Below are positions 667 through 50,143 of a DNA stretch of 64,000 bases, piece by piece. How positions within the stretch are numbered: the first letter of the stretch is position 1; each line of letters opens with the position of its first letter. The translations under genes and the position numbers were made by a program. The stretch is from an uncultured Elusimicrobia bacterium (lineage in GTDB: Bacteria > Elusimicrobiota > Elusimicrobia > UBA1565 > UBA9628), in NCBI GenBank assembly GCA_964537395.1, contig CAZIBN010000012.1:633-64632 (forward strand), given 5' to 3'. Under the pieces are notes generated by a model. That model was not told where the DNA came from, made no database searches, and worked only from the letters and a program-made list of their open reading frames with translations.

Positions 667-675
667 ATTATATCA
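667..675 (-). promoter_or_regulatory. Extended -10 promoter (TGaTATAAT) 6 nt before the RLP ATG
   Basis: Reverse complement of 667-675 is TGATATAAT; ATG at 660; no Shine-Dalgarno in between. Confidence 0.65.
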
Positions 676-1440
676 CCGTAGAGCGTCGAAGAGCACCTTG
701 GCGAAAAGCCCGGCGCAGACGAGGGCGACGACGGGGCGGATCAGGCGCGCGCCATTTTTGACGCCGAGGTGGGAGCCGACCCAATGTCCCGCGATCGAAA
801 GCAGGCTCATCGAGAGGCCGACCTTCCAATCCAGGCGGCCTGCCCACATGAACGCGGCGAGAGCGCCCATGTTCGAGACGAGGTTGAGGATCTTCGCGCG
901 CGCGGTGGCGCCGAGCAGGTCGTGCTTGCCCCAGCGGGCGAAGGCGATGGCGAAGAAGGTGCCCGTGCCCGGGCCGAAGAAGCCGTCGTAGGCGCCGATG
1001 GGGGCCGCGACGAGGATGCCGCGGCGCTGCCTTTCAGCGGCGCTCAGCCGGCCGCTGTCGTCGACGGAGCCGAAGTCTTTCTTGGACCAGACGAGCCAGG
1101 CCACGACGGGCAAAGCCGCGAGAAGCATCGGCCGGATCCAGGAGGGATCGACCAGGATGGCCGCGCGGGCGCCGAACCAGGAGCCGATCATCGAGGCCGC
1201 GATTACGGGCAGGAAATCTTTGATCGAGAACTTCAGCGCGCGGTGATAGCGCACGGTCGAGACCACGGTGCCGAGGCAGGAGGTGAGCTTATTGGTGCCC
1301 AGGATCAGGGCGGGGTTGAGGCCGACCGCGAGATAGGCGGGCAGGGTGATCAGGCCGCCGCCGCCGGCCAGGGCGTCCACGACTCCCGCGAAGAACACGC
1401 AGGCGGCCAGGAACAGCGTCGCGCCGGGGCCGAGGGGCAT
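673..1440 (-). CDS. TSUP family (TauE/SafE-like) membrane permease
   Basis: 255 aa, multiple TM segments, DALAGGGGLITLP, GTNK and YDGFFGPGTGTF motifs typical of TSUP/YfcA. Confidence 0.88.
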   Translation of the reverse strand: MPLGPGATLFLAACVFFAGVVDALAGGGGLITLPAYLAVGLNPALILGTNKLTSCLGTVVSTVRYHRALKFSIKDFLPVIAASMIGSWFGARAAILVDPSWIRPMLLAALPVVAWLVWSKKDFGSVDDSGRLSAAERQRRGILVAAPIGAYDGFFGPGTGTFFAIAFARWGKHDLLGATARAKILNLVSNMGALAAFMWAGRLDWKVGLSMSLLSIAGHWVGSHLGVKNGARLIRPVVALVCAGLFAKVLFDALR

Positions 1441-1597: not shown

Positions 1598-1690
1598 ATG
1601 CGGAAGCCCTCGTCCCCTCTCCGCAGGGTGCTCGCCGTTTGTCTCTCGCTGCTGATCCTTCCCTGGCAGCAACCGGCGCTTGCCCTGGCA
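1598..1690 (+). other. Sec-type signal peptide of the giant protein
   Basis: MRKPSSPLRR (basic n-region), VLAVCLSLLIL (h-region), PWQQPALALA (AxA-type c-region). Confidence 0.75.
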
Positions 1691-4600
1691 GAATCTTCAG
1701 CTTCTGGCGCCATAGTTTCCGGCGTCAAGCTCGACCATCCCCGCGAAGTCCTCGACGCGCTCGACCTGAAGCTGGCCGTGCTCCTGGCGCGGATCAAGAG
1801 CGACGATCTCATGACTCCGGCGCTGACGGCGGCCCTGCCCGAGGACCTCGCCAAGCTTAAGACCGGGTACAAGGCCGCGCAGGACAATTACATCGCGGCC
1901 GAAAAAGAGGCCCCTGACGCGGCCAAGCCCGAGCTCAAGGCGTTGTCCGCCGCGAGCACGGGCCAGCTCATCGTCGAGGCCGTCGTCGAGGCCGATCTCG
2001 GCGGGGTGCGCAAGGACCTGGCCGGCATGCTCGCCTCCGAGGTCTCGCTGAGCCGGCGTCCGGACCAGATCCCCGAGTCGGACTGGGCCGCCGTCGAGAA
2101 GGCGGCTCCGGATTTCAACGCGGGGCTTCTGCCCCTGTCCTCGAGGGTGGAGAAGGTCCGCAACCAGCCGCCGTACGCCGTCAAGGACGTCGAGGACGCC
2201 TACCGTCCGCTCGCGGACGCGCTCGACGCCTCGTTCCAGAATCTGCGCGGGCGCGCCTCCAGGATCGACATCGCCGGGCTGCTCGCAGCCAAGCCCAAGA
2301 CCGCCTCGGGCGACGCCGCCGGGGCCTTGATGGCCGAGGTCGCCCGGGCCCTTCCGGCGGATAAGGCGGCCCTGCTCAAGCCGCAGCTGGCCGCGGTCAA
2401 CACCAAGCTCGCGGGCTATCTGCACTCGGGAAATCCCGCCGACCTGACCTCGGCGCTCGCCGAGATCGACCGGCTCTACGACGCGGCCAATATCAAGAAG
2501 ATCGACCGCGCCGACATGTTCGACCGCATCGGCAATGCGGCGCAGGCGCGCGCTCAGACCTCCGTGCCGGCAGCGAGCGGCGCCGCAATCCAGTTCAGCG
2601 TGGTCCCGAAAGCTGTAGGGATCGACTCGAAGGACGTCCCGCTCCCGGCGGTCGAACCGGGAGAAAAGAAGTCTGCGCCGGCCGCGAGCAGCCTCGACGC
2701 CGACGCGCGCCTGGCCATGCAGACCGCAATGTCCGCGATGGGGCATATCATGCCCGACGGCGACCCGGCGAAGGCGGCGCTTGACGCGCTTTCGGCCGTG
2801 GGCGTGCCGGGCTCGAACAGCTTCGTCTCCGCCAAGGCTCGGGAGCTCTCTGAGATGCTGCTCGGCCGCGCGGCCGGGCTGAAGCGGGAGGACGCGGACG
2901 AGAAGGCGGCGAAGGGATTGGCAGACGCTTACGCGCTGATCGAGGCCCGGGTCACCTCCGTCGTGCTCGATGCGCCCGACCGCACCTTGGACCCGGCTCC
3001 GGCCGACGCCGAGAAGCTGGCGGCCTACAACATCAGGTGGGAGAAGAACTCCGCGGATCAGCTCAAAAAGCTCAAGGCGGTCGAGGCCGAGCTGACGTCC
3101 ACCGGCAAGACCGATCTCGGCGTCACGGGCCCCGGGGTGTGGGGCTGGAGCGAGGCGCTTCTCGCGGGGACTCCGGCGCTCGTGCCCGAGGCCGCCGCCA
3201 AGGCCCTCGCGCCCGCTCGCGCGCGGGCGAAGAAGCTCGTCGACCTGATCAGCTCCCTGCGCCATCAGCACGAGATCAGGGAGCTGGACCTGACGACCCC
3301 CAAGTGGGGCAAGGAGCTGAGGCTCACCATCCTCTATGCCGACGGGAAAGGCGCCGCGGGCGATCTCGGCGCGACGGGCAATGCCGTGGTCATCCAAACG
3401 GTCAAGGAGCGCGAGAGCCTGGAGAAGGCCGCGGGGATCCTCGCTCGATTCAAAGCGGTGACGCTCACCGGAGACCCCGCCGCCGACCGCGCGGCGCTCG
3501 ATTCGTTCTTCGACAAGGCCGAGAACAAGGCCGATAACCTGCCGCCGATGATGTCCGATTGGGTCCGGGTGCGGGACTTCGACCGGGGGAACGCCAAGCT
3601 CAAGGCCGAGGGCAAGCCGGAGCTGCCTCGCCCGCCGGGCCTGCCCGGAACGGACGAGACCTACAGGCGCTTCGTCGTCGCCGACCGGTATGAGCGGATC
3701 AAGGCGATCCCCGACCCGACCCAGCAGCAGATGGCGCAGCTGCACGAGACCTACTTTGCGATGAACCGCGCCGCCTACATCGCTCTCGGCTGCGATCCGG
3801 CCCAGCTCGCCGCGGCCGAGGGGTCCTCCGGATCCGCGGCGCAGGAGCCAGCGGCCGGCGAGGCTCAGGCCTCAGGGGGGAATCTCGATCCGAAGGAAAA
3901 GGCGGCCTTCTGCTCCGGCTTCCTCGCGAACGCGCGCCGGCCGGAGACCTATGACGTGAACGGGTTCTATGCGCAGAAGAAGCTCGCCGACCAGATCAAG
4001 CCGTTTCTCAACGACAACGAGCTGGCCAAGGCCGCGGCGAACCTGGGCACGACGACCGCGGAGATGCAGCGGAGCCTGAGAGCGATGTCTCCGGAGCTGC
4101 GCGCGAAGTTCAGCGAGAAGGGCGTGGATGTGGAGGGCATCCTCAACCAGGGCGAGCGCGGCCAGGTCCTGCGCTGGGCGGTCGTGGTCGACCAGCTCAA
4201 GACCGCGGGCGACGACGCCGGCTGGCGCGCGTACAGCGACGTGGTCATCCGCAACGTCTATGGCGACAAGACCGACTTGGCCACCAAGGCTCAATCCAAT
4301 AAGATGCGCGCGGCCGCGGCCTCGGAAGACGCGGCCGGCATGGCGGCGTCCCTCGGGGATATTCAGAATCCGGCGGTCCTGACCAACGGCTACCTCGCGG
4401 CCCTGCCCAAGATGCTCGGGTCCGAGCGCTCGCGGCGCTCGGCGCGCGATCGCGCGCTGCTGTTCATGTGGAACGGCGGCGCCAAGAAGGGCGAGGCGCC
4501 GGCGGAGAACACCTATGCGGGCCTGCTCCTGGCCGTGGCGGGTCAGTACGAGGCCGACGCCGCCAAGCCGGAGAATAAGGAGGGCGCGGCCGAGCTTAAG

Positions 4601-7600
4601 CGCCTGTCGGCGCTGATGCGCGAGGTCGCGGCGGATCCTTCCGATCCCGAGAAGTCCGCCGAGGCCCTGCGCGCCGCCGGCCGGCCCGTGTTCGACGCGC
4701 GCGCGGTGCGCGTCGGCATGGACACGACCAAGGTCCCCGCCGAGCCCGGCACCGAGGAGGAGAAGCGCGACTACCTGACGGCGCGCAGCCTGGCGGCGCT
4801 GTTCCTGTCCAAGGGCGAAAGCTTCCTCACCGCCGAAGGCGCCGCGAAGATCCGCAGCGGCCTGCTCAAGAAGATCGGAGGTGAGCTCGCCGACTCGCAG
4901 GAGCAGAACCGCCGCGACCAGCTGATCCGCTCCGCGTCGGACGAGCATCAGGACCGCATCGCGAAGCTCGGCGTCGTCTCGGGCGAGATGCTCGCCGAGG
5001 CGGGCGCGGGCGGCGGGGAGAGCGTCGTCGCCCGCCGCCGCATCGAGGGGAGCGCCTCCTATCGCGAGCTGCTGGGTGTGGCGAATTCAGTCAAGAGCTA
5101 CCAGAACGCGGACCTCGAGCTATACAACGTCACCGAGAAGCTCGCCGCCACCGCGTGGGGACGGGCGAGCATGACCTTGCCCGGCCTGCTCGCCTCCGCG
5201 CAGGCGCAGTCCTCGCTCACGCTTCGCTCCGCGGCCGGCCCCAACGGCCTGACCTTGTCCGGCTGGATGGTCGGCCTGCCCGATATCGGAGATGTCACGC
5301 GCGAGAATGGACATAAGGTGCCGTTGCCGGAAGACGAAAAACCCAGGGACCCGAAAGTCGTCGACGGGTTGATCATGGGTAATGTCCCGACGAATCTCCC
5401 GAAGGGTCCTTTGAATGGATTCACCTACAGGGATGCCAAAGGCCGTCAGATATTCACCTCGCTCAACGGCGACTATCAGGAAACGAGCATGGTCAAGACG
5501 ACCCCGCTCGACTACGACGACGGCAAGGGCGGGAAGGTCGCGGTCGAGGCCACGGTCATGCGCGGGACCAAGCTCGACAAGGAGGGCAAGCCGGCGCCGT
5601 TCGATTTCTACCGGCAGGGCAAGGGCACCTTCGTGCGCGTCGAGCGCGTGCGCAAAGGCCCCGACGGCGCCGAGCAGATCTACTATGAGCGCGTTCCGGT
5701 CACCGCCGCCGACGGCATAACGGGCGGCGCGCCGGTGAATACGACCTTCATCACGATGCGCGAGGGCAGCCGCACCGTGGTCGCGAGCGTGGACCGCGAC
5801 GGCTCCGGCGCCCTGCTGCGCTGGCGCGCGAGCTACGATAAATCCGAGGACTACATCGAGGTGGACCGCGCCGGGCGTTCCCAGACGGTGCGCGCCGGCT
5901 CGAAGGTGATGGTCTTCAGCCTGACCGAGGACGGCACGGGGCTGGCCGCCAGCCGCAACCGCCAGACCTTCGAGGTCGTCGGGGGCAACCAGGTCCTGAA
6001 GAAGGTCGAGTACTTCGACCTGGTCAAGAAGAGCCCGACCTACGGCCGGATGATGGTCGAGACGCCGCTGCAGGGCGACGTCGCCGGCGTCACGGTGATC
6101 CGCAGCTTCGGCGGTGCGACCCGGCTGGCCTCCTTGACGGCGGAGCAGCGGGACGCCATCATCCTCGGCAAGTCGAAGGAGCGATTCGTCGACGATCCCG
6201 CCGCGACGAGCTACCGCGTCCAGGCCGACCGCAACGGCATGACGCCGGAGAAGCTCGCTAAGTTCTACAGCAACGTCGCGCACTTGGTCAAAAACGATAT
6301 CGGGCTCACCGCGGGCACGGGCAAGGCTGTGGACGATGCGGTTTTGCGCGCTAAGTTCGCCTCCCAGTTCGTGGGCCTGGCGGCCTTCTTCGATGGACAG
6401 GCGATGGGACTGGGCAAGGATGCGACCCCGCAGGGAGGCCGCGCCATCAAGCCCGGCGCCTCCTCGGTCAGCTTCGACATCGGCCAGGGCGGTTCGGTGA
6501 GCGCGAGCTCCTCGGGCTTCGATCGGGGCACTTTGCGCGTCGAGCGCAGCAACTCGACGCAGTTCACCTTCGTCTCTCTGCCGGAGAACGCCCCGCACAT
6601 CGAGCACGGCAAGCCGCTGACCGGCCTGGATCCCAACGACAAGCTGGACAAGGCCATCCTCGACTCGATCTTGTCCCAGGAGCTCGCGGCCGTGCGACAG
6701 GCGCTCGGCGGTCAGGATTCCGGCTTCGTGATCTTCGACGGGGCGCCCGGCAAGCCGACGACGGTCGGAGGATTTTTCGGCAGCCACAACGGCAAGGAAG
6801 GCGTCCACTCCTTCTCGATGGTCGACACTATCACCAACCCGCACGATAAGGACAACGGCTTCGCCTATATCACCTCCTCGGACCTGGTGCGCCGCTTCCG
6901 AGTGGACAATAGGATCGCGGGCGAGGTTAAGGTCGGAGGGACGACCGCCGTCTCGAACGCAGGCGAGCACTGGGGCGCTTCCGCCAACAACAGGATCCGA
7001 TACTCGCCCTGGGGCCGTGCGAACCCGACCACGGCCGCGGTCCTGGGCGGCCTGGCCGGCGGCGTCGTCTCGGCCGTGGCCGACTGGAAGCTTCTGGCGC
7101 TGACCGTCGCGATGGGCGGCAGCAACATCATCGCCGGGGTGCTGGTGCGTACCACGAGCACCTTCCTGGTCACTACCGGAAAAATCATCCAGTACGGCGC
7201 ACGCGGCTTCGATCTCTACTTCAAGTATGAGATGGGCGTAGGCGCGTACCAGTCGGTTGGCGCGCTCAACAACTATGCGCAGACCGGCGATGTCGACAAG
7301 TTGAATGAGGGCATCATGGGCCTGACCGCCGCGGGCGTCGGCCTGTACGCGGGGCATAAGATCGGCAAGTTGACCCAGGGCCTCGGCGTGAAGCTTGAGG
7401 GCAGGGTCGAGAGCTACCTCAAAGGCAGGGGCATCGAAGTGATCCCCAAGGGCGGCGCCGCGCCGAACGCGGCGGGCGACAAGAACGAGCCGGCGAAGAA
7501 CGAGCCGGCGAAGAACGAGCCGGCCAAGAACGAGCCGGTCAAGAACGAGCCGGTCAAGAACGAGCCGGTCAAGAACGAGCCGGTCAAGAACGAGCCGGTC

Positions 7601-10600
7601 AGGAACGAACCGGTCAGGAACGAACCGGTCAGGAACGAGCCGAGCAGAACGGAGCCTGCACGCACGCCGAATGGCGAAGCCCCGAGGCCGCCCGTCGAGC
7701 GGACGCCTCCTCCGACGCCTCGCGCCCCGACGATGATGGGCCGGCTGGCGCAAAGCCTCGGCTTCAGCGGCGGCACGCTTAATTCTCCCAACTCCGCGCG
7801 GGCGACCGGAGAGGGCGCTACGCCCGGCGGCACGAAGTCCTCGGCCAACAGCGCCGTCGGCGAGGCCCCGGCCTCCGCGCCGAAGTCGGGTCCGTCCGGT
7901 GAGACGGCCGCCGCGGCGGCGCCGAAGGCCGGCCCGTCCGAGACTGTCGCCAAGGCCGGCGCGCCCGAAACCCCGGCGGCGAAGGCGCCTGCGCCCGAGT
8001 CCGCGCGCGCGGAGACCGCGAAAGGCGGCGCTGCCGAGAAGGCCGGCGGCGCCGAGAAGAATGCGGGGCCCAACGAGGTCGTCAGCTCGGAGTTCATCCG
8101 TCCCTTGGCTCCCGAGATCGCGGCCTCCCGCGGGGCGCCGGAAGGCTTACCGAGCGCCGCCGAGGGCATCATGCGTGGAGCCCGCCCGGAGGGCCCGGTG
8201 CGCGGCATGGCCAAGGAGGGGGCGGTTAAGGAGGGCGTGGAGCTTGTCGAGCCCGTGGCGCGACCCGAGGTGTCAAAGCGCGCTCGGATCGTCGAGCGCG
8301 AGCCCGCCGCCGAGCGAGCGGTCCGCGATTCGGATGCGTCTTCACGCGTGCCGGATCTGCCCGTGCGCGGCCTTGAGCCCGCGAAGGGAGCGCAGGCGGC
8401 TAAGGGCACGGAGCCGGCCAAGATCGTGGAGCCCTCCGGCAATGTCGACGCCGCGCTCGCCGCGAAGCCAGGAGCGAGCGCCACGACGGCCGACGCCGCG
8501 CCTCCGACGGGCGCGGGCCGCGCGCCCGCGGCCAAGCCGACCCGCTTCCAGCGCTTCAGTGACTTCATGAACGCGGACATCACCCTTAAGCGCATCACCG
8601 ATTTCATGGACGCGGACATCGCCCGGACGAAATCGGATTTCGCGCCGGCGCGGCAGCTCGGCCGCTGGGTGTCGGGCAAGGGCGAGGGGGCGATGGCCAA
8701 GCTTGACGGTGTCGAGATCCTGGGCTTGCGCGCGAGCGACGTGGTCCGCGCGCCCAAGCTCCTGGGGCTCGGGGTCGAGAAGATCGGCTCGGGCCTCACC
8801 GCTCTCGGGACCAAGTTCTCCTCGGGAATGTCCGGCCTGGCGCGCCTGGCGGGCTTCGAGGGCCTCGCGTCAAGGCTCGCTCCGCGCTTCAACGAGTACG
8901 GGCAGAGGATCGGCGTCGACGGCCATCCCGTGCCTCCGGGCTTCATCAGCTCCATGTTCCACGACGCGGGCGGTCTGCTCCAGGGCCGCTTCATGGCCGC
9001 GCCGCCCGGCGGTCGCCCGGCGACCATCGAGGAGCTGCGCTATCCCAAGCTCGCGGACCGGCCGTCGTTCCGGGAGGCGTTGACGGCCGAGGTCCGCTCT
9101 GCGGGCGGCGAGGTGGCCGGACGCTACGATCCGGCGACTCAGAAGGTGACCTTCGGTCCCAAGGCCTCGGGCCCGGCCGAGATCATCGTCGAGGTCCGTC
9201 CCGGCGCCGATGGCGCCGTCGAGATCACGGGCTATCGCGTCAAGGCGGCGGACCCGACGGTGGAGGCGCGCGCGCACGGCGAGGCGACGTCCTTGCTCCA
9301 GAGCACCTTCCGCATGGACCGGCATCAGGCCTCGCTGCAGGACGCCTTCGCCTCGAAGGGCGCGCGCGCGGAGCTGGCGCGCAACCTCGACGCGACGGGC
9401 GAGACCTATCTCGACCTGGCCTACGACGCCCCCGGCGGACGCTTGAGCGTCGCGGGCAAGCCCGGCGCCGGCGATGTGCGCGTGCGCCTGCGCGCAGGCG
9501 AGGACGGCGCTTTGGCCATCGGAGAGATCGTCGCTTTGAAGGAGGGAGCCAAGATCCCGAACGTACTCCGTGAGAACCTCAACGTCTTCGCCGCTCGCGA
9601 GACGGTGTCGATCGCGGAGAAGACGGGGGAGGCCGCGCGCCCGCTCACGCCTGAGGAACTGGGAGCCCGCCTGGTCGAGCGTCTGAAGGCCGAGCGGGTG
9701 CGCTACGAGCAGGAGAACGTCGAGCGCACGGCGCTGTCTGAATCCCGCGTCAAGGGAGCCAGAACGCGGCTTGATGCGGCGCAGACGGGGGCCGCCGCGC
9801 CCGGCACGCCGGAGCTCGCCACCGTACGCGGGATCGCGCGCAAAGTCGCGGAGCTGCGCATCGAGCGGGAGACGTCCGACCTGGAGACCGCGGCCGCCGA
9901 CAGGCACCTGGAGACGCTGAAGATCTCGAAGAAGGCCGTCCTTCGCGCCGAGGAGGCGCTCGGGGCGCGCGAGCGGGCCGGGCGCGAGCTCGACAAGGTG
10001 GAGACCGAGCACAGGGCAGCTCAGGCCGAGCTCAACGCGCTCGCGCAGGGCGACGTCGGGCGGCCGGCGGCGCAGGCGCGCCTGCGCGAGATCCAGGTCC
10101 GGGGGCGCGAGGTCGCGGAGCGCTTCCGCGTCGTCGATGAGAACGCCGCGCGCACCGGCGCCGAGCTGACCGAATCCGCGGTCGACGCGCTCGTCCGGCG
10201 CCAGGCGGCGAGCCAGAAGATCGCCGTGATCGAGGCGGCCGGCCGCGTCGCCATGGGTGAGCTGAGGACCGCGGTGCGCGAGGCCCGCGGCGGCAAGCAG
10301 TCCTCCGCCGAGCAGAAGGCGGCCGTTCGTGAGGCGCTCGCCAACGAGCGCCTCGCCGCGGCGGAGTTCGCGCGGGCGGAGGAGGGCGGCATCCGCGAGT
10401 ACCAGCTCAACGGCCTGCACAGCTCGGGCGGCGGCGGCGGCCGGCGCGTGGTGATGATGCGTCTGCTGGCCGAGGAGGGCGCGCTGAAGGGCGGACGCAG
10501 CAGCGTCGGCCAGGAGGCGGGCAAGAACCTCTGCGTCGTGGCCACGGCCGCCGACATGGTCGCGACCGCGCTGGGGCGGCCGGCCTCGCGAGCCCTGGCC

Positions 10601-13600
10601 GAGGCCGAGGCCGCGATCATCGCCCATCACAAGGGGGGGCCGGAGGCGGGCCGGGCTTTCCTGCGCGACGTGGCCAAGAGCGGCATGTCGCGCTCCGAGA
10701 TCCGCGAGATGATGGGCGCGGTGGCCGAGGCGTCGGGCCTTAAGCTCGTCGAGATCCCGGCCGAGTCTCTTTTCGTGAAGCTCGCCCAGGGCGGCCAGAT
10801 CGCGATCGTGATGACTCATGTCGCCGACTCGGCCGCCGGCTTCAACGGCGGGTCGCACATGGTCAACCTGTCCAATTGGCGCCAGGCGCGCAACCCCGTC
10901 ACCGGGCGCGTGGAGACCATGGTGGACGTGGCCGATCCCAACATCCGCGTCCTGTCCGGCAGGAGCCCGGGCGGCGCGCCGATCTACGAGGCGAAGACGG
11001 TGTCGATGCCGCTGTCGGAGATCGCGCCCGAGATCCGCGGCAGCCTGCGCGCGGAAAACGGCAACGCGGCCGGCTACGCCTTCGAGCCCGCCGCCGGCGC
11101 CGGCCCACGCGGGCCGCCCGCGCGCCCCGTCGCCGAGCTCGTCGCCCGCATGGGCGGCACCGTGGGCTCCGGCTCGGGCGCGGCTGTCGCGGGCGTCAAA
11201 TCCCCGGCCGGCTTCGAGAGCCGCGGTCACGGCAAGGTCATCGACCCGACCCTCTTGCCGGTCGAAATCTATTCGAAGGAGATCGTTCAGGCCTCCCGCG
11301 AGCACGGGCTGGTCTACGAGCTCGACGCCGCCTCCCTGGGCCGGATGAAGCCGGGCGTCAAACATAATTACGTGATCTCGCGCAGCCCGGACGGCATGAT
11401 CGAGATGACCGTGGGCCGCCTCGCGGAAGGCAACGTCAAGGAGGTGGGCGTCAAGCACGTCGCGCTCGGGGACGGCCGCCCGGTTCTGTTCGCCGGCGAG
11501 ATGGTGGTCGATCCCGTCACCGGCCGGCCGAGGCTCGATTTCAAGAGCGGCATGTACTCCCAGGTCGGCCTCGACGCGCGCTGGGCCCCGACGGCGGAGA
11601 ACGCCCGCGCGCTCGCCGTGCATGCCGAGGCGATCCTGGGCTCGCCCGTCGAGATCTTCAACCACGTCAGCGAGCGGTCGATCGATGTCGGCGGCGCGAC
11701 GCCGAGCGGCGTGGGCATGGCGGCCAGCGCGCCTGTGCGCTCCATCTCCCGCGGCGAGTCGCGCCGCGACTGGACGGTCAATGGCCGTCCCGCCGAGAGG
11801 CTCTCCGCCGGCGGCTTCAAGGAAGTGCTGATCCATCCGTCCGACGCGGGCCTCGTGATCAAGCTGTTCTCGTTGACGGGCGGCAAGGACGCGGCGGGCA
11901 GCCGCTCCGAGATGCGCCTGGAGATGCGCAACCTCGAGCCGCTGCTCAAGATCGAACGCACCCCCCGGGTCGTGGAGAAGGGCGAGGTCGATCTGCAGAC
12001 CGCTTCCTCGGGCAAGCGGGGTGCCAGCTACATCGTTCAGGAGCGCGTCATCGGCCGCGAGATCGGCGAGATGCTCCGCGATCCGAGCTCCGAGGTCCGC
12101 GCCCGCGCGATCAAGCAGGCCCGTGCGCTGTTCGAGGATCTGATCTCGGCGCGGGTCAAGCTCGAGGACCGCGTGAAGATGCACGAGAACATATCGGTCG
12201 GCCGCGCGGGCAAGGGCGGCTTGGAGAAGGCCTGGGTCCTCGACGCGGGCGAGGCGACGCTCGTCGCCAAGCGCGGGATGCTCGATGGCCTGCTCGGCAA
12301 GGCGGATCCCCTGCGCGTGTATTATGAGTCCGTGCTCACCGAGCTGTCGGGGCTTTCGCGCACCGTCGCGCGGGGCACGGAGAGAGGCCGGGGCGTGGGC
12401 ACGGCGACGGACGTGACTCGCTATGAGCGCTACTTCTCTCCCGTCGAGATCAAGGCGGCGCACCCGACGCCGAAGACAGGCGAGGTCTATCACAATCTCG
12501 AGCACACGCTGAAGGTCGCCGACATGGCGGGCGAGTTCGCCCGGGCGCGCGGCCTCGGCGAGGCCGACGTGAGGTTCGTCTCCGAGGTCGCCTTGCTTCA
12601 CGACTTCGACGCGGCGCGTGTGCCGGGCAAGCCCGCGCGCGTGCTCGCCACCCTCGAGTCCTTGCGCGCCGACTTCGCCGGAACGATGTCCCTCAACGGC
12701 GAGCCGGGCCGCTCGGTCCTCAAGGAGCGCTTCAAGTGGAGCGAATCCCAGCTCAAGATGGCCGAGGCGATGATCCAGCGCACCGAGTTCCCGTTCGCGG
12801 AGAAGCATCCCAACCCGGCCTACGCCGAGAAGAGCCCGCTCGCGCGCTACGACGAGATGCTCACGGCCATGTCGCCGGGCGACCGCCGCTTCGTCCTGCG
12901 CGAAGCCGCGCTGCTCTCGGAGTACGCCGACAAGTCGAGCTGGTACGCGACCGCGAAATACGAAGACGCGCATAAGGCCGTCGAGGGCCTGGTCAACGAG
13001 ATCGGCGTCCCCGCGGTCACCATCGGCACCCTGGGAACGAACGGCTTCCTGAAGGTGATCGGGGAGCCCGCGAGCTTCACGCACGACATGGCGCTGGCGA
13101 AGAAGTTCGATGTGAAGCTGACGCTGCAGAACCGCGCCGAGGCGTTCAAGCTCCTGCCCGAGCACTACGGCCGCACGTTCGAGGCCAACCTCAAGGGCTT
13201 CACCGAGTTCGACGCGGCGATGAAGGCGGGGGACCCGGCCGCCTATGAAAAGGCGCGCGCGGTCGCGGCGATCGCCGCCGAGCCGGCGGCGCGCCGGGCC
13301 GGCGTCGGGTCCTCCTTCAAGCCGGTCCCGGACTCCGCGACGGCCGTGCGCCTGCGCGGCGAGCAGAAGTTCGCGCGCACGCCGGACTATCCGAACTCGC
13401 CCGTCTTCACCGAGAACTCGGTCAAGGCCAACGACTTCTTCAACCGCTGGCTCAACGGCCAGGAGGGGACCCTTTCCCTGCGCCAGACGATGGAGTCCAT
13501 GCACAAGCTGTACGCGGGCCAGGGCGAGATCGGCAAGGGCCTCGGCGGGCAGTACATGCCCGAGGGCGCGCCCAACAACGGCCGCGCCAAGGTCACGCGC

Positions 13601-16600
13601 GACTTCGTCCGCGACTACTTCGGGCTCGAGGCGAACCCCGACGGCCATGTCTCCCTGCCGGGCATCCCCAAGGACATGAGCCCTCTCTTCCTCGGCTCAC
13701 GCTACTTCTATCCGGATTCCTCGATCCCAGGCATGCGCGAGACCTACTACAAGGCGCTCGAGACGCATCTGGCGACCTACTCCGAGCTCGTCAACCGGAT
13801 CGACGCGCTCAAGGCCCGGGACCCGAATTTCAAGACCAGCATCGAGTACCAGGCCCTGACCAAGGCGAGCCTCGACACCGTGGTGGACTTCGGGCGCACG
13901 GCCGCGGCCTTCCGCCAGTTCAAGAACGGCAACTGGGGCCTGTACGGCCCGATGATGAACTCGATGGTCAACCGGCTCGGCTTCTCGATCAAGAACCCGG
14001 GCTACCTCGACATCATCCTTCAGGGCGCCACCGAAGGGTCGATCAAGCCGTTCTTCGAGAAGGCGGTGCGCGAGGGCGTCGAGTTCTTCCCGAGCGACGG
14101 CTACGACCCGATCAAGGGCAAGGTGCGAGCGCCCGACGCGCCCCAGCCGGTGGTCCGGGCTCCGTCGGCGCCGCGCGACGTGTACGCGAACGCTCCGGCC
14201 GTCGTCAGATACGAGGGCCCGATACGCCTGCGCATCGGCGGCGAGGGGGGCAAGACGCTCGAGATCCTTTCCCGGGCCGACCTCGCCAAGAGCTTCCCAG
14301 ATGTGGCGCGCCTCATCGGCGACCCGCGCATCGAGCACGTGCTCATCGATCCGGCGAAGCCGGAGCAGATCAAGGGCCTGCGCCGGGGAGAGGTGTTCGA
14401 GCTCGGCCGCAAGGCCCCCGGCCGCTTTGAGCTGACGCCGAGCGTTTCCGGCAAGCACCTTCGCATCACCGGCGAGGGGGACGTCCTGCGCATCGAGGAC
14501 CTCGGCTCGTCGAACGGCACGCGCCTCGAGGTCCCCTCCAGGGCGGCCGGCGTCGGCAGCGGCGGCGGCCTTCTGAGCCGCGTGTTCGGCGGCCGCAGCG
14601 AGAGCATGCCCGCGGTCCCCGAGAAGATCATCTGGCCGGTCGAGGCGGGCGGGCCGGTTCCCGCGAGGCTCGACTTCACCAAGCTCAAGCTCGACGGGCC
14701 GCTTAAGAATCGCGAGGCCGTCCACACGAACGTGATCGCCGTCGAGCTCGGCGGCCGCAAGGCCGTGCTCAAGATCGACGCCAAGCCCAACGAGGCGCGC
14801 GTGCTGGCGGCGATGGCTGAGGTGCCTCTGCCGGCCAACGTGCGCGTCCCGCGCCTGCTCGGCGACGCCCCGGCGGACGCGATGGGCCTGTTCAGCGTGA
14901 CGCGCGAGGCGCCGGGAGCCGTCGACTACGCCGCGGTCAAGCGCGCGGCCGCCGAGGGGCGGCACATGCTGGCCGTGGAGCGCCTGCCCGACGATTTCGT
15001 CTCGATGATGCAGGTGACCAACGGCTCCGTCAAGCTGAAGGCGCCGATCTCGCGCGGGGACTGGCAGGGCCTGCTCGACGCGGTCAAGTCGTTCTCGCGC
15101 CGGGGCATGGGCTTCGGCGACCTCGGCAACGAGACCAATATCCGCCTGCGCCAGGTTCCCGACGGCAACGGCGGCGTGAAGACCGAGTTCGCGCTGATCG
15201 ACGCGGGCCAGGGCACGCTCAAGGGCAAGATGGAGACGCTCAACAGCGACTTCGTCCAGCTCAAGGGCGACCGCGCGCTCGAGACGCGCCTGCTCGAGAG
15301 GAATCTCCTCGAGGGGCGAGGGGCGCTGCCCGATCCCCGCCTCGCGGCGATAGCCCGCAACCAGGTGCCGCAGAGCCAGAAGTTCGCCGTCGAGCTGAAC
15401 GCGCTGATGAAAGGCGGCGGCGAGCGCCCTTCCGCCGCGCTACGGGCCGAAAGCCATCGCTTCACCGATCTGGCGCAGGCCGCCGCGTACCTTAAGGCAC
15501 CGGAAGGCATGCAGCTGCTCGAGAAGACCTCCGAGGGCCTCGCCGGAGACACGGTCAAGGTCGAGGTCGGCGGCCAGGACTGGTACCTCAAGCGCGTATC
15601 GAAAAAGCTCGGCGATTCGATCGACACGGGCCTGCGCGAGCTGACGCCGCGCGAGCGCGCCGGCAACGAGCTCGCGCTGCGCGAGGTCGTGCGCCGCTGG
15701 TTCCCCGAGACGTTCCGCGTGGCTCCCGAGGCGATCGCCATCGAGCACGGCGGCGAGATCTTCGTCCTGACGAGGGGCGCGCCCGCCGCGCCCGCGCCCG
15801 CGCGCCTGCAGACGATGACCGCCGCCGAGCACGCCGACTACGCGCTGCTGCGCCTCGTCTTCCGCGCCGAGGATCTCAATCGCGGCAACGTGCTTTTCGG
15901 CAAGGACGGCAAGCCGACCTTGATCGACTTCGAGAAGGTCATCGCCGCACCCCTCGATCCCGCGAGCGTCGCGCGCGGGGCCAATGCCGAGATATTCCTG
16001 AAGGGCTTCCCGGTGGTCTCGCTCAAGGGCAACGACCTGGCGGTGTACCGCGCCCATGCCGACAAGTTGCGCGCCCGCTTCGCCAGCCCCGAGCACGTCG
16101 CCGAGCTGACGGGCGTTCTCGAGCGCGCCGGCTGGACGCCCGAGCGGACCGCGAGCTACCTGAAGGCGATCGAGATCAACCTCCGGAACTTCGAGGTCAA
16201 CCTCGCGCCGTACATCGCCGAGGCCAACACGGTCATCGCCAAGCGCCCCCAGGGCGTCGGCGCCGCCGACAGCTTCTTCGACGGACCTCCGGACGCGGTG
16301 CGCGCGCGTCAGAGCGCGGACAAGCCCTCGCCGCTGCGCCAGATACAGGTCTCGCTCGAGGCGCGCGGCAAGGGCGACGTCTTCAAGGAAGCCGAGGCGA
16401 TCTACTATAAAGACGCCCTGACGGGCCTCAACAACCGCGCCTTCCTCATGGCGAACGCGGAGTCCCTGCTCAAGGGCATGAAGGACCCGACGGTCGCGAT
16501 GCTCGACATGAACAACTTCGGGGCGGTCAACGCGGGGCTCGCCGACGTGCACGGCCCCGTGGCCGGCCGGGAGATGGGCGACGCCATGCTCGCCGCCGCG

Positions 16601-49759: not shown

Positions 49760-50143
49760 TTAACCCCAGTAGGAGCCCATGAAGCCTTTGTCGTCGGGCT
49801 TCACGGTGAGGCGGATGTGGTCGAGGAGGCCGCGCAGCGATCTCTCCTGGCCGCCGGTGAGGTTGAAGGCGATGCCGTATTGGCGGGCGTCGGGATCGTT
49901 GCCGGACCGGCCGGCGTCGCGGGCCACGCGCCCGGGGAGGTCGAGCGTGCCCTCCTTCCATTTGACGCTGATACGGTAGGTCGAGCCGGTCTTGAGCATG
50001 CCCCGCACTCGCAGAAGGCAGCCGGTGAGGCTCATGTCGAGGAGCTGTCCTTCGCCGATGCGCACGCCGCCCACGGGCCCGCTGAAGACCTCGACGGAGA
50101 GGTCGCTCGGGAAGCGTGCGTGGGTGCGGTTGGACTTGTCCAT
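49760..50143 (-). CDS. Stand-alone PilZ-domain protein (c-di-GMP receptor)
   Basis: RTHARF (RxxxR) and DMSLTGC (DxSxxG). ATG 50143 is preferred. Confidence 0.85.
   Translation of the reverse strand: MDKSNRTHARFPSDLSVEVFSGPVGGVRIGEGQLLDMSLTGCLLRVRGMLKTGSTYRISVKWKEGTLDLPGRVARDAGRSGNDPDARQYGIAFNLTGGQERSLRGLLDHIRLTVKPDDKGFMGSYWG

Follow-up and report, generated by a model that had tools for sequence, protein, structure and literature searches.

A giant protein with two consecutive GGDEF domains

The 64,000-nucleotide stretch of DNA analysed here, hereafter the window, comes from an uncultured Elusimicrobia bacterium (positions 633 to 64,632 of contig CAZIBN010000012.1, assembly GCA_964537395.1) and encodes on its forward strand a giant protein of 5,616 residues. 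Towards the C-terminal end of this protein lie two GGDEF domains, which we call D1 and D2. Together they make up the unit that is the subject of this analysis (residues 4886-5361, nucleotides 16253-17686), set between the last two of the exact G-V-G tripeptides that divide the giant's C-terminal third into modules. The features of the gene and of the unit are listed below, with residue equivalences in PleD numbering.

1598..18448, + strand: carrier open reading frame, 5,616 residues, with a Sec-type signal, an exported region, a hairpin, linkers and a string of modules (open reading frame list, sequence reading, hydropathy)
16253..16261, + strand: upstream G-V-G junction, PQGVGA, residues 4886-4888 (motif search)
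16325..16987, + strand: D1, a helical hairpin plus a GGDEF domain with catalytic residues kept, residues 4910-5130 (Pfam, profile matches, AlphaFold predicted local distance difference test, pLDDT, of ~90, residue table)
16505..16522, + strand: D-M-N-N-F-G, residues 4970-4975, its Asp equivalent to the PleD metal ligand Asp327 and its final Gly standing at Lys332 (residue table)
16655..16669, + strand: GGEEI signature loop of D1, residues 5020-5024, with Arg5018 (PleD Arg366) just before it (residue table)
16916..16939, + strand: A-K-A-E-G-L-R-G, residues 5107-5114, holding the D1 equivalents of the triphosphate-clamp residues Lys442 and Arg446 (residue table)
16988..17056, + strand: inter-domain linker, residues 5131-5153, within which lies the sole internal low-confidence stretch of the model (pLDDT <50 at fragment residues 255-264)
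17057..17656, + strand: D2, a helical hairpin plus a degenerate GGDEF domain, residues 5154-5353 (Pfam, profile matches, hhalign to D1)
17231..17260, + strand: S-A-R-N-F-K-A-V-N-D, residues 5212-5221, with Ser and Arg at Asp327 and Asp329, and Lys332, Asn335 and Asp336 kept (residue table)
17375..17389, + strand: GGKEF, residues 5260-5264, with Lys at the metal ligand Glu370 (residue table)
17678..17686, + strand: downstream G-V-G junction, PKGVGA, residues 5361-5363, followed by the C-terminal tip module (motif search)

Both domains are members of the GGDEF family, well beyond chance. Against the Pfam model PF00990, whose cut-off is 23.8 bits, D1 scores 48.9 bits (E 8e-13) and D2 31.0 bits (E 2.6e-7); the NCBIfam model TIGR00254 gives 70.9 bits, its cut-off too being passed by both domains, and the profiles of D1 and of D2, used separately, match solved diguanylate cyclases. 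The Pfam match covers only profile positions 3-93 because of a helical insertion of ~30 residues. An earlier reading of the DNA made from its letters alone (the sequence-only reading) had described a GGEEI motif followed by a GGKEF copy in one fragment bounded by G-V-G, with DxNNF..VN and GD upstream of the first signature. All of this is borne out: the signatures begin at residues 5020 (nucleotide 16655) and 5260 (nucleotide 17375) with no G-V-G between them, and LDMNNFGAVN and GD lie at residues 4969-4978 and 4994-4995.

The two domains form one evolutionary unit, a rare family of its own. Searched exhaustively with phmmer, 1.84 billion representative proteins yielded the unit in only 24 clusters at E<1e-10, followed by an abrupt fall to ordinary GGDEF proteins at ~1e-9; every match long enough to hold the whole unit was a single stretch over both domains, and the remainder were short fragments. 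The G-V-G junctions, of consensus (R/K/P)-E-G-V-G-(S/A), flank and never split the unit in four giant relatives. A junction of the form (R/K/P)-E/Q-G-V-G-(S/A) precedes the unit in P0004 and L003 and lies ~20 residues upstream in L011/P0002, and the downstream junction also follows the unit in P0002/L011, P0004, L003, L008 and L012. The C-terminal part of the giant itself holds six G-V-G tripeptides (residues 3371, 3599, 3902, 4318, 4886 and 5361), against 1.7 expected by composition, a number reached in 18 of 2,000 shuffles.

Among named genomes the family is confined to Elusimicrobiota, where its carriers belong to a groundwater clade and largely to one genus. In contigs sampled at one genome per species, the unit occurs at 15 loci. 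Thirteen are titled Elusimicrobia or Elusimicrobiota, a fourteenth 'Candidatus Endomicrobium trichonymphae', and the last is called simply 'bacterium'; groundwater samples are the source of several. An even sample of the phylum contains the unit in 11 of 401 Elusimicrobiota genomes. Ten of these 11 belong to the window's own genus, and at least 13 other sampled genomes of that genus are without it, a patchy distribution.

D1 keeps most catalytic residues and D2 a different set

Conservation was read from a residue table of 20 family members at ~30-40% identity, with the roles of residues taken from PMC7288161 and PMC12943098. Every tested mark of an active cyclase is kept in D1 except Lys332. 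The metal ligand Asp327 (Asp4970) is Asp in 20/20, and the Asp329 position is Asn in 19/20; the guanine ligands Asn335 (Asn4978) and Asp344 (Asp4995) are kept in 19/20 and 20/20, respectively, and Arg366 in 20/20. The signature reads GGEE, including Glu370, in all 20 members, with Phe (13), Ile (6) or Leu (1) as its last residue, and both clamp residues are likewise invariant (Lys442, Lys5108, 20/20; Arg446, Arg5113, 20/20), the Arg being one residue out of register. At the position of Lys332, the side chain of which has been called a transition-state stabiliser (PMC12943098), D1 has Gly (Gly4975; 19/20), and an 8-residue insertion lies in the base-binding region between the guanine ligands Asn335 and Asp344. 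The description of the first domain as 'near-intact' must be qualified accordingly: it fits most of the catalytic residues, and it does not fit the Gly at Lys332 or the insertion. Because all D1 ligands are strictly conserved, we argue that D1 catalyses phosphoryl transfer from GTP (guanosine triphosphate), and its residues argue for D1 as the catalytic half of the pair.

D2 has indeed degenerated, as the sequence-only reading had it, and along specific lines. Ser replaces the metal ligand Asp327 (Ser5212; 18/20), Arg or Lys stands at Asp329 (20/20) and Lys at Glu370 (19/20), so that the family signature is GGKEF or xSK(E/D)F; no motif recognisable as the Lys442/Arg446 clamp is found in D2 across the 20-member table. 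Judged from these residues, D2 cannot catalyse, its metal ligands having been replaced by Ser, Arg and Lys and its clamp being gone. Other positions are kept: Lys332 (Lys5217), Asn335 (Asn5220) and Asp344 (Asp5229) are each 20/20, the two guanine ligands at canonical spacing, Asp336 and His340 are each 20/20, and Arg366 is Arg in 19/20. Since conservation of D2 equals that of D1 (mean column identity 58% vs 61%), D2 is being maintained and is not decaying. Its guanine pocket, Lys332 and the basic residues in place of the metal ligands are all strictly conserved, and this speaks for a D2 that either takes up a guanine nucleotide or adds to the D1 site.

Neither domain has the RxxD I-site, the site of product inhibition, expected five residues before the signature: D1 reads RKAGVQVARLGGEEI and D2 reads GYSVEEPVRVGGKEF there, and the I-site Arg position in the unit family is Ala or Gly. 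The five full-length housekeeping GGDEF proteins of the same genome are unlike both domains, with DxDxFK in 5/5 and RxxD in 4/5.

Duplication and the predicted architecture of the unit

The profiles of D1 and D2 align with each other at 96.6% probability (hhalign), and both domains carry an N-terminal helical hairpin as well as the ~30-residue helical insertion after the signature hairpin, neither of which is typical. By this alignment and these shared features, the pair arose through internal duplication of an already unusual GGDEF domain. An AlphaFold2 model of the unit, built from a 16-sequence alignment, has a mean pLDDT of 85 and a predicted template-modelling score (pTM) of 0.78, and its only uncertain internal part is ten residues of the linker. 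For two domains of ~200 residues each, a pTM of 0.78 suggests that a fixed D1-D2 interface is confidently predicted; the model implies that D1 and D2 would form one compact body. The best Foldseek matches are single GGDEF domains, namely DgcZ (3tvk; template-modelling score, TM, on target 0.76), PleD, SadC and WspR. An arrangement like that of soluble adenylyl cyclase or of Cas10 was considered and rejected: the soluble adenylyl cyclase 4clp aligns with the unit over 427 columns at a TMq of only 0.29 and a root-mean-square deviation of 11.8, and the 50 matches listed do not include Cas10.

These results bear on the proposal of the sequence-only reading that the pair is a single-chain pseudo-dimeric cyclase. 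The single chain stands, in that there is one conserved unit predicted to fold as one compact body. The canonical, symmetric two-GTP form cannot work, for a pseudo-dimer whose D2 has Ser at the metal ligand Asp327, Lys at the metal ligand Glu370 and no Lys442/Arg446 clamp cannot close both bonds. D1 is itself without Lys332.

It is also conceivable that the exported effector cyclises by pairing D1 with the D1 of a second molecule, in which case D2 would be a regulatory, dimerising or nucleotide-sensing appendage, or an auto-inhibitory decoy until delivery. GGDEF-EAL proteins offer familiar examples of degenerate GGDEF domains with a GTP-sensing or partner-binding role, and a D2 without metal ligands or clamp that keeps its guanine pocket in 20/20 would fit such a role. 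The accepted cyclase mechanism, moreover, calls for a pair of catalytic GGDEF domains with GTP bound to each (PMC7825114). Against this stands the confident single D1-D2 body, which would hinder pairing if the active face of D1 is buried against D2. Before D1 there are only two 11-residue helices, with no coiled-coil stalk or other dimerisation device, and the fact that D2 has kept the very Lys332 which D1 has lost points to functional complementation within the pair. We consider D1:D1 pairing rather unlikely.

The carriers look exported and toxin-like

The giant begins with a Sec-type signal peptide (MRKPSSPLRRVLAVCLSLLILPWQQPALALA), which is followed by an exported region of ~1,800 residues and, at residues ~1810-1852, by a hydrophobic hairpin recognised from hydropathy; a third, weak hydrophobic stretch is also present. 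Besides the GGDEF pair, the giant carries kinase, FHA and HD domains (Pfam). A Sec-type signal stands at the start of every complete carrier of the unit, its n-, h- and c-regions being recognised by inspection of P0001, P0006, P0007, P0009, P0010, L012, L014 and L015.

Several of the carriers are short. These proteins of ~490-870 residues open with a signal peptide and an Ala/Pro-rich leader, in some cases add a further module, and finish with the GGDEF pair as their C-terminal end; their N-termini are positively charged and they have no membrane span besides the signal peptide. Given a cleavable-type signal, N-terminal positive charges and no second span, the GGDEF pair of the short forms must sit outside the cytoplasm. 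The leader after the signal peptide is itself conserved in P0005, P0006, P0007 and L002 (GQIE.P.SG....G.QTGA(V/I)G ... VPSL ..., then an Ala/Pro-rich run); it is unlike the N-terminus of the giant and may be an unrecognised sorting signal.

Larger relatives carry C-terminal EndoU (PF14436) or CdiA-CT (PF18451) tips, as well as Kdo-type kinases, and the order of modules varies among P0001, P0002 and P0003. Cysteine is depleted 12-fold in the giant: the proteome mean of 0.85% predicts ~48 Cys for its 5,616 residues, and there are only 4. The unit contains no Cys at all. Taken alone this is a weak sign of export, for 11% of the genome's open reading frames of 400-600 residues are also Cys-free; the meaningful figure is the depletion over the whole giant. 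Taken together, the carriers look like exported proteins of the polymorphic-toxin kind.

The four Cys of the giant lie at residues 15, 732, 772 and 2979. One is inside the signal peptide, and one is the likely nucleophile of an internal Cys-peptidase-like module (NLCVVATAAD).

The tip module that follows the last G-V-G of the giant (17678-18445) has no Pfam match at E<=1. The tips of the close relatives P0002 and P0004 differ in sequence, and P0002 has a precomputed match to EndoU_bacteria (PF14436). The tip has thus been exchanged between close relatives.

The sequence-only reading had left the pair's place of action between a target cell and the producer's own cytoplasm. A location outside the producer is the better supported of the two, by the Sec signals, the anchor-free short forms, the Cys depletion and the toxin tips, and the producer option is disfavoured. 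In its strongest form, that option would make the C-terminal two-thirds of the giant the undelivered, cytoplasmic output of a huge membrane-anchored sensor, with the GGDEF pair feeding the cell's own network of cyclic di-GMP (c-di-GMP). Kinase, FHA, HD and GGDEF domains are indeed typical of signalling, the genome has its own GGDEF, HD-GYP and PilZ proteins, the weak third hydrophobic stretch could flip the topology, and one group of relatives has the unit immediately behind a hydrophobic stretch, the layout of classical membrane-bound cyclases. Such a sensor is nonetheless difficult to reconcile with short forms whose only hydrophobic segment is a signal peptide, so that the pair lies outside, or with EndoU and CdiA-CT tips, modules shuffled among relatives at a fixed locus and the Cys depletion of the giant. 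D1, unlike housekeeping cyclases, has neither an I-site nor an adjoining sensor domain, and the presence of the unit in 10 genomes of the genus and its absence from at least 13 is also at odds with a sensor role. We regard a cytoplasmic output as improbable.

The short forms bear likewise on whether the unit is an enzyme at all. A pair in which neither domain is enzymatic might serve as a nucleotide-binding or structural adaptor (for entry, for translocation or as a chaperone-like spacer), or as a guanine-nucleotide sponge in the recipient. In several relatives the unit does occupy the place, behind the delivery region and ahead of the toxin tip, that pre-toxin or entry domains have in CdiA-type proteins, and with D1 lacking Lys332 and D2 clearly non-catalytic, the residues give such a role some room. 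In the short forms, however, no toxin follows the unit, which forms the C-terminal tip on its own, and metal, base and phosphate ligands that stay invariant in D1 at ~30-40% identity are hard to explain without catalysis. A purely non-enzymatic unit seems to us a poor prospect.

A hypervariable effector locus

The carrier gene is flanked by two genes for membrane proteins:

673..1440, - strand: TauE/TSUP permease gene, left flank of the variable effector locus (Pfam PF01925)
18888..19694, + strand: BrkB/YihY-family membrane protein gene, right flank of the variable effector locus (Pfam PF03631)

The site between TauE and BrkB is a hypervariable effector locus. At the L005 locus (8136-12227) the same flanks, 89% identical on the TauE side and 81% on the BrkB side, surround a 798-residue signal-peptide protein that ends in the unit, and the L006 and L007 loci look like L005. 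The TauE-BrkB backbone is thus conserved within one genus around effectors that range from 798-866 residues to 5,616 residues, a roughly sevenfold difference in size, with the GGDEF pair as their common part.

No immunity gene is found at the four loci L005, L006, L007 and L010, where the unit is the C-terminal tip and the next gene, for BrkB or for aspartate carbamoyltransferase, follows within 29-53 nucleotides. In L005-L007 there is no immunity gene because the next gene begins 29-32 nucleotides after the stop codon (31 in L005). The neighbours at L010 are pyrimidine-biosynthesis genes. The short-form loci also have no phosphodiesterase gene beside the unit.

The c-di-GMP network of the genome

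The sequence-only reading had pointed to a PilZ receptor encoded elsewhere in the window. The gene exists (~49823-50131, - strand), and it is not linked to the unit, lying ~32 kb away and being one of four PilZ genes in the genome; on these grounds it was rejected as the unit's partner. The giant's own HD module was likewise rejected as an HD-GYP partner, as it gives only a generic HD match and no GYP motif is visible in its sequence. Apart from the unit, the genome has a complete network of its own, with six GGDEF matches, four HD-GYP-type (PF13487) proteins and the four PilZ proteins. No EAL domain is present in the whole genome, and c-di-GMP breakdown here would depend on HD-GYP enzymes alone.

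Proposed mechanism

We propose that the unit is a feedback-insensitive, GTP-using cyclase or transferase module with a built-in non-catalytic partner, which is exported and acts in the cytoplasm of a recipient cell; we hold this reading with about even confidence. It stems from the internal duplication of one GGDEF domain, after which D1 and D2 kept complementary halves of the catalytic apparatus. D2 would then be the built-in partner of D1: it may hold a second guanine nucleotide, donate its Lys, or simply set the geometry of D1. The carrier would deliver the module, the most likely substrate would be the GTP of the recipient cytoplasm, and the product there would be c-di-GMP or a related guanine dinucleotide, its synthesis unchecked by feedback. 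The recipient would be manipulated, not killed, which would explain the missing immunity gene. The analysis shows the identity of the domains, their residue pattern, their conservation as one unit, the restricted taxonomy, the export signals, the toxin tips that accompany the unit and the polymorphism of the locus; enzyme activity, product, delivery to another cell, the role of D2 and cleavage at G-V-G are all steps that we infer.

A more specific version of this proposal is possible and, in our view, distinctly less probable. Here the unit would be a single-active-site, single-chain nucleotidyltransferase in which D2 holds the acceptor nucleotide or gives its Lys to the D1 metal site, injected into neighbours by a polymorphic-toxin carrier to reprogramme rather than kill them, for example with c-di-GMP imposed on contact, or with a non-canonical product, be it linear pppGpG or some other dinucleotide. 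In the absence of an immunity gene, siblings of the producer would not be spared, and the whole would amount to a direct, protein-borne device for contact-dependent signalling.

Several points weigh against the proposal of an exported cyclase or transferase. Without Lys332, and with the 8-residue insertion in the base-binding region, D1 may be inactive or yield a different product, and under the accepted two-domain mechanism D2, by its residues, cannot serve as the second catalytic domain. No solved chain superposes on both domains together in the Foldseek search. No outer-membrane secretion partner or delivery machinery is seen beside the carrier gene, the whole genome not having been searched for it, and the short forms may simply be periplasmic. 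The topology after the hydrophobic hairpin is deduced from hydropathy alone. Finally, kinase, FHA, HD and GGDEF domains are also ordinary parts of bacterial signalling.

Relation to known systems

Diguanylate cyclases are regarded as strictly intracellular, tightly regulated enzymes. With canonical members (PleD, WspR, DgcZ, SadC) the unit shares the fold, the PF00990 match and a TM of up to 0.76 to DgcZ, and D1 shares the metal Asp, GGEE, the guanine Asn and Asp and the clamp. The unit differs from them in having no sensor or dimerisation domain, no I-site, Gly at Lys332 and insertions of 8 and ~30 residues, in the fusion of D1 to a degenerate copy, and in an exported carrier in place of a cytoplasmic one.

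Degenerate GGDEF domains serve elsewhere as sensors and receptors, as in the GTP-sensing GGDEF of GGDEF-EAL phosphodiesterases, PopA and PelD. D2 resembles these in having lost the signature and metal ligands while keeping the base pocket, under purifying selection equal to that on its active neighbour. Its partner is a GGDEF and not an EAL domain, however, it has no I-site, it keeps the Lys that D1 has lost, and the same particular substitutions recur across the family (Ser/Arg in place of the Asp pair, Lys in place of Glu370).

The general scheme for likening the carriers to polymorphic toxins is that of the CdiA-type and MARTX-type multi-effector toxins. Like these, the carriers are very large exported proteins with a Sec signal, and relatives exchange their variable C-terminal modules at one chromosomal site; further likenesses are the EndoU or CdiA-CT tips, the recurrent junction motifs and an internal peptidase that is a candidate for releasing the modules. 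They differ in that no TpsB, type I secretion system or type VI secretion system partner is seen beside the gene, in a cyclase-type cargo without an immunity gene, and in a delivery route and a G-V-G cleavage that are both putative.

GGDEF domains have been noted in the 'polyvalent proteins' of phages and plasmids (PMC5512222) and in giant proteins of Omnitrophota with downstream pilZ genes (bioRxiv 10.1101/2023.11.21.568195). There, as here, a GGDEF domain lies among unrelated enzymatic modules of a very large protein that has another cell as its presumed target. In contrast, the present unit is a fixed active-plus-degenerate pair with its own family, is chromosomal, belongs to Elusimicrobiota, is carried behind Sec signals and has no adjacent pilZ. 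The literature yielded no characterised case of an exported or periplasmic GGDEF or of GGDEF in polymorphic toxins, only these polyvalent and Omnitrophota observations, and no described active-plus-degenerate GGDEF pair as a conserved exported module.

The same logic, a cyclase-fold domain duplicated within a single chain with one catalytic and one degenerate copy and complementary losses, is found in C1-C2 of mammalian adenylyl cyclases, in soluble adenylyl cyclase and in the two Cas10 palms. The predicted arrangement of the unit is nevertheless not superposable on soluble adenylyl cyclase, and GGDEF domains normally each bind their own GTP and share no site.

If the proposal is correct, an exported, feedback-free cyclase found beside ribonuclease tips would be a new intercellular weapon or signal, one that imposes a second-messenger state. 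The reciprocal loss of catalytic residues is also a natural experiment on how much GGDEF dimer catalysis needs and on whether a pair can work with one active site, and the claim is directly testable with one recombinant 476-residue fragment. More broadly, this uncultivated phylum has a hypervariable effector locus at which an 800-residue protein and a 5,600-residue polyprotein can replace each other.

Further observations on relatives

In some relatives a second junction-like motif, a poly-Pro run followed by (V/I)-(G/R)-(T/K)-(M/L)-(K/R)-P-T-D-(T/L)-R, takes the place of G-V-G; it occurs twice in P0003 (residues ~2590 and ~3760) and once in P0022 (residue ~1095), and may be another processing site. 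The distant carriers P0015, which has two copies, and P0025 contain a Cys-peptidase-like module (EGNCVSHALAN.SNGRF; GSDGTCLAHGLAAC) that resembles that of the giant, and P0025 also has a stretch resembling a histidine-kinase-type ATPase. Lastly, in one genome of the window's genus the copy of the unit (G232:C41:52346-53704) is interrupted by a single in-frame TGA, for which a pseudogene, a sequencing error or recoding are possible explanations.

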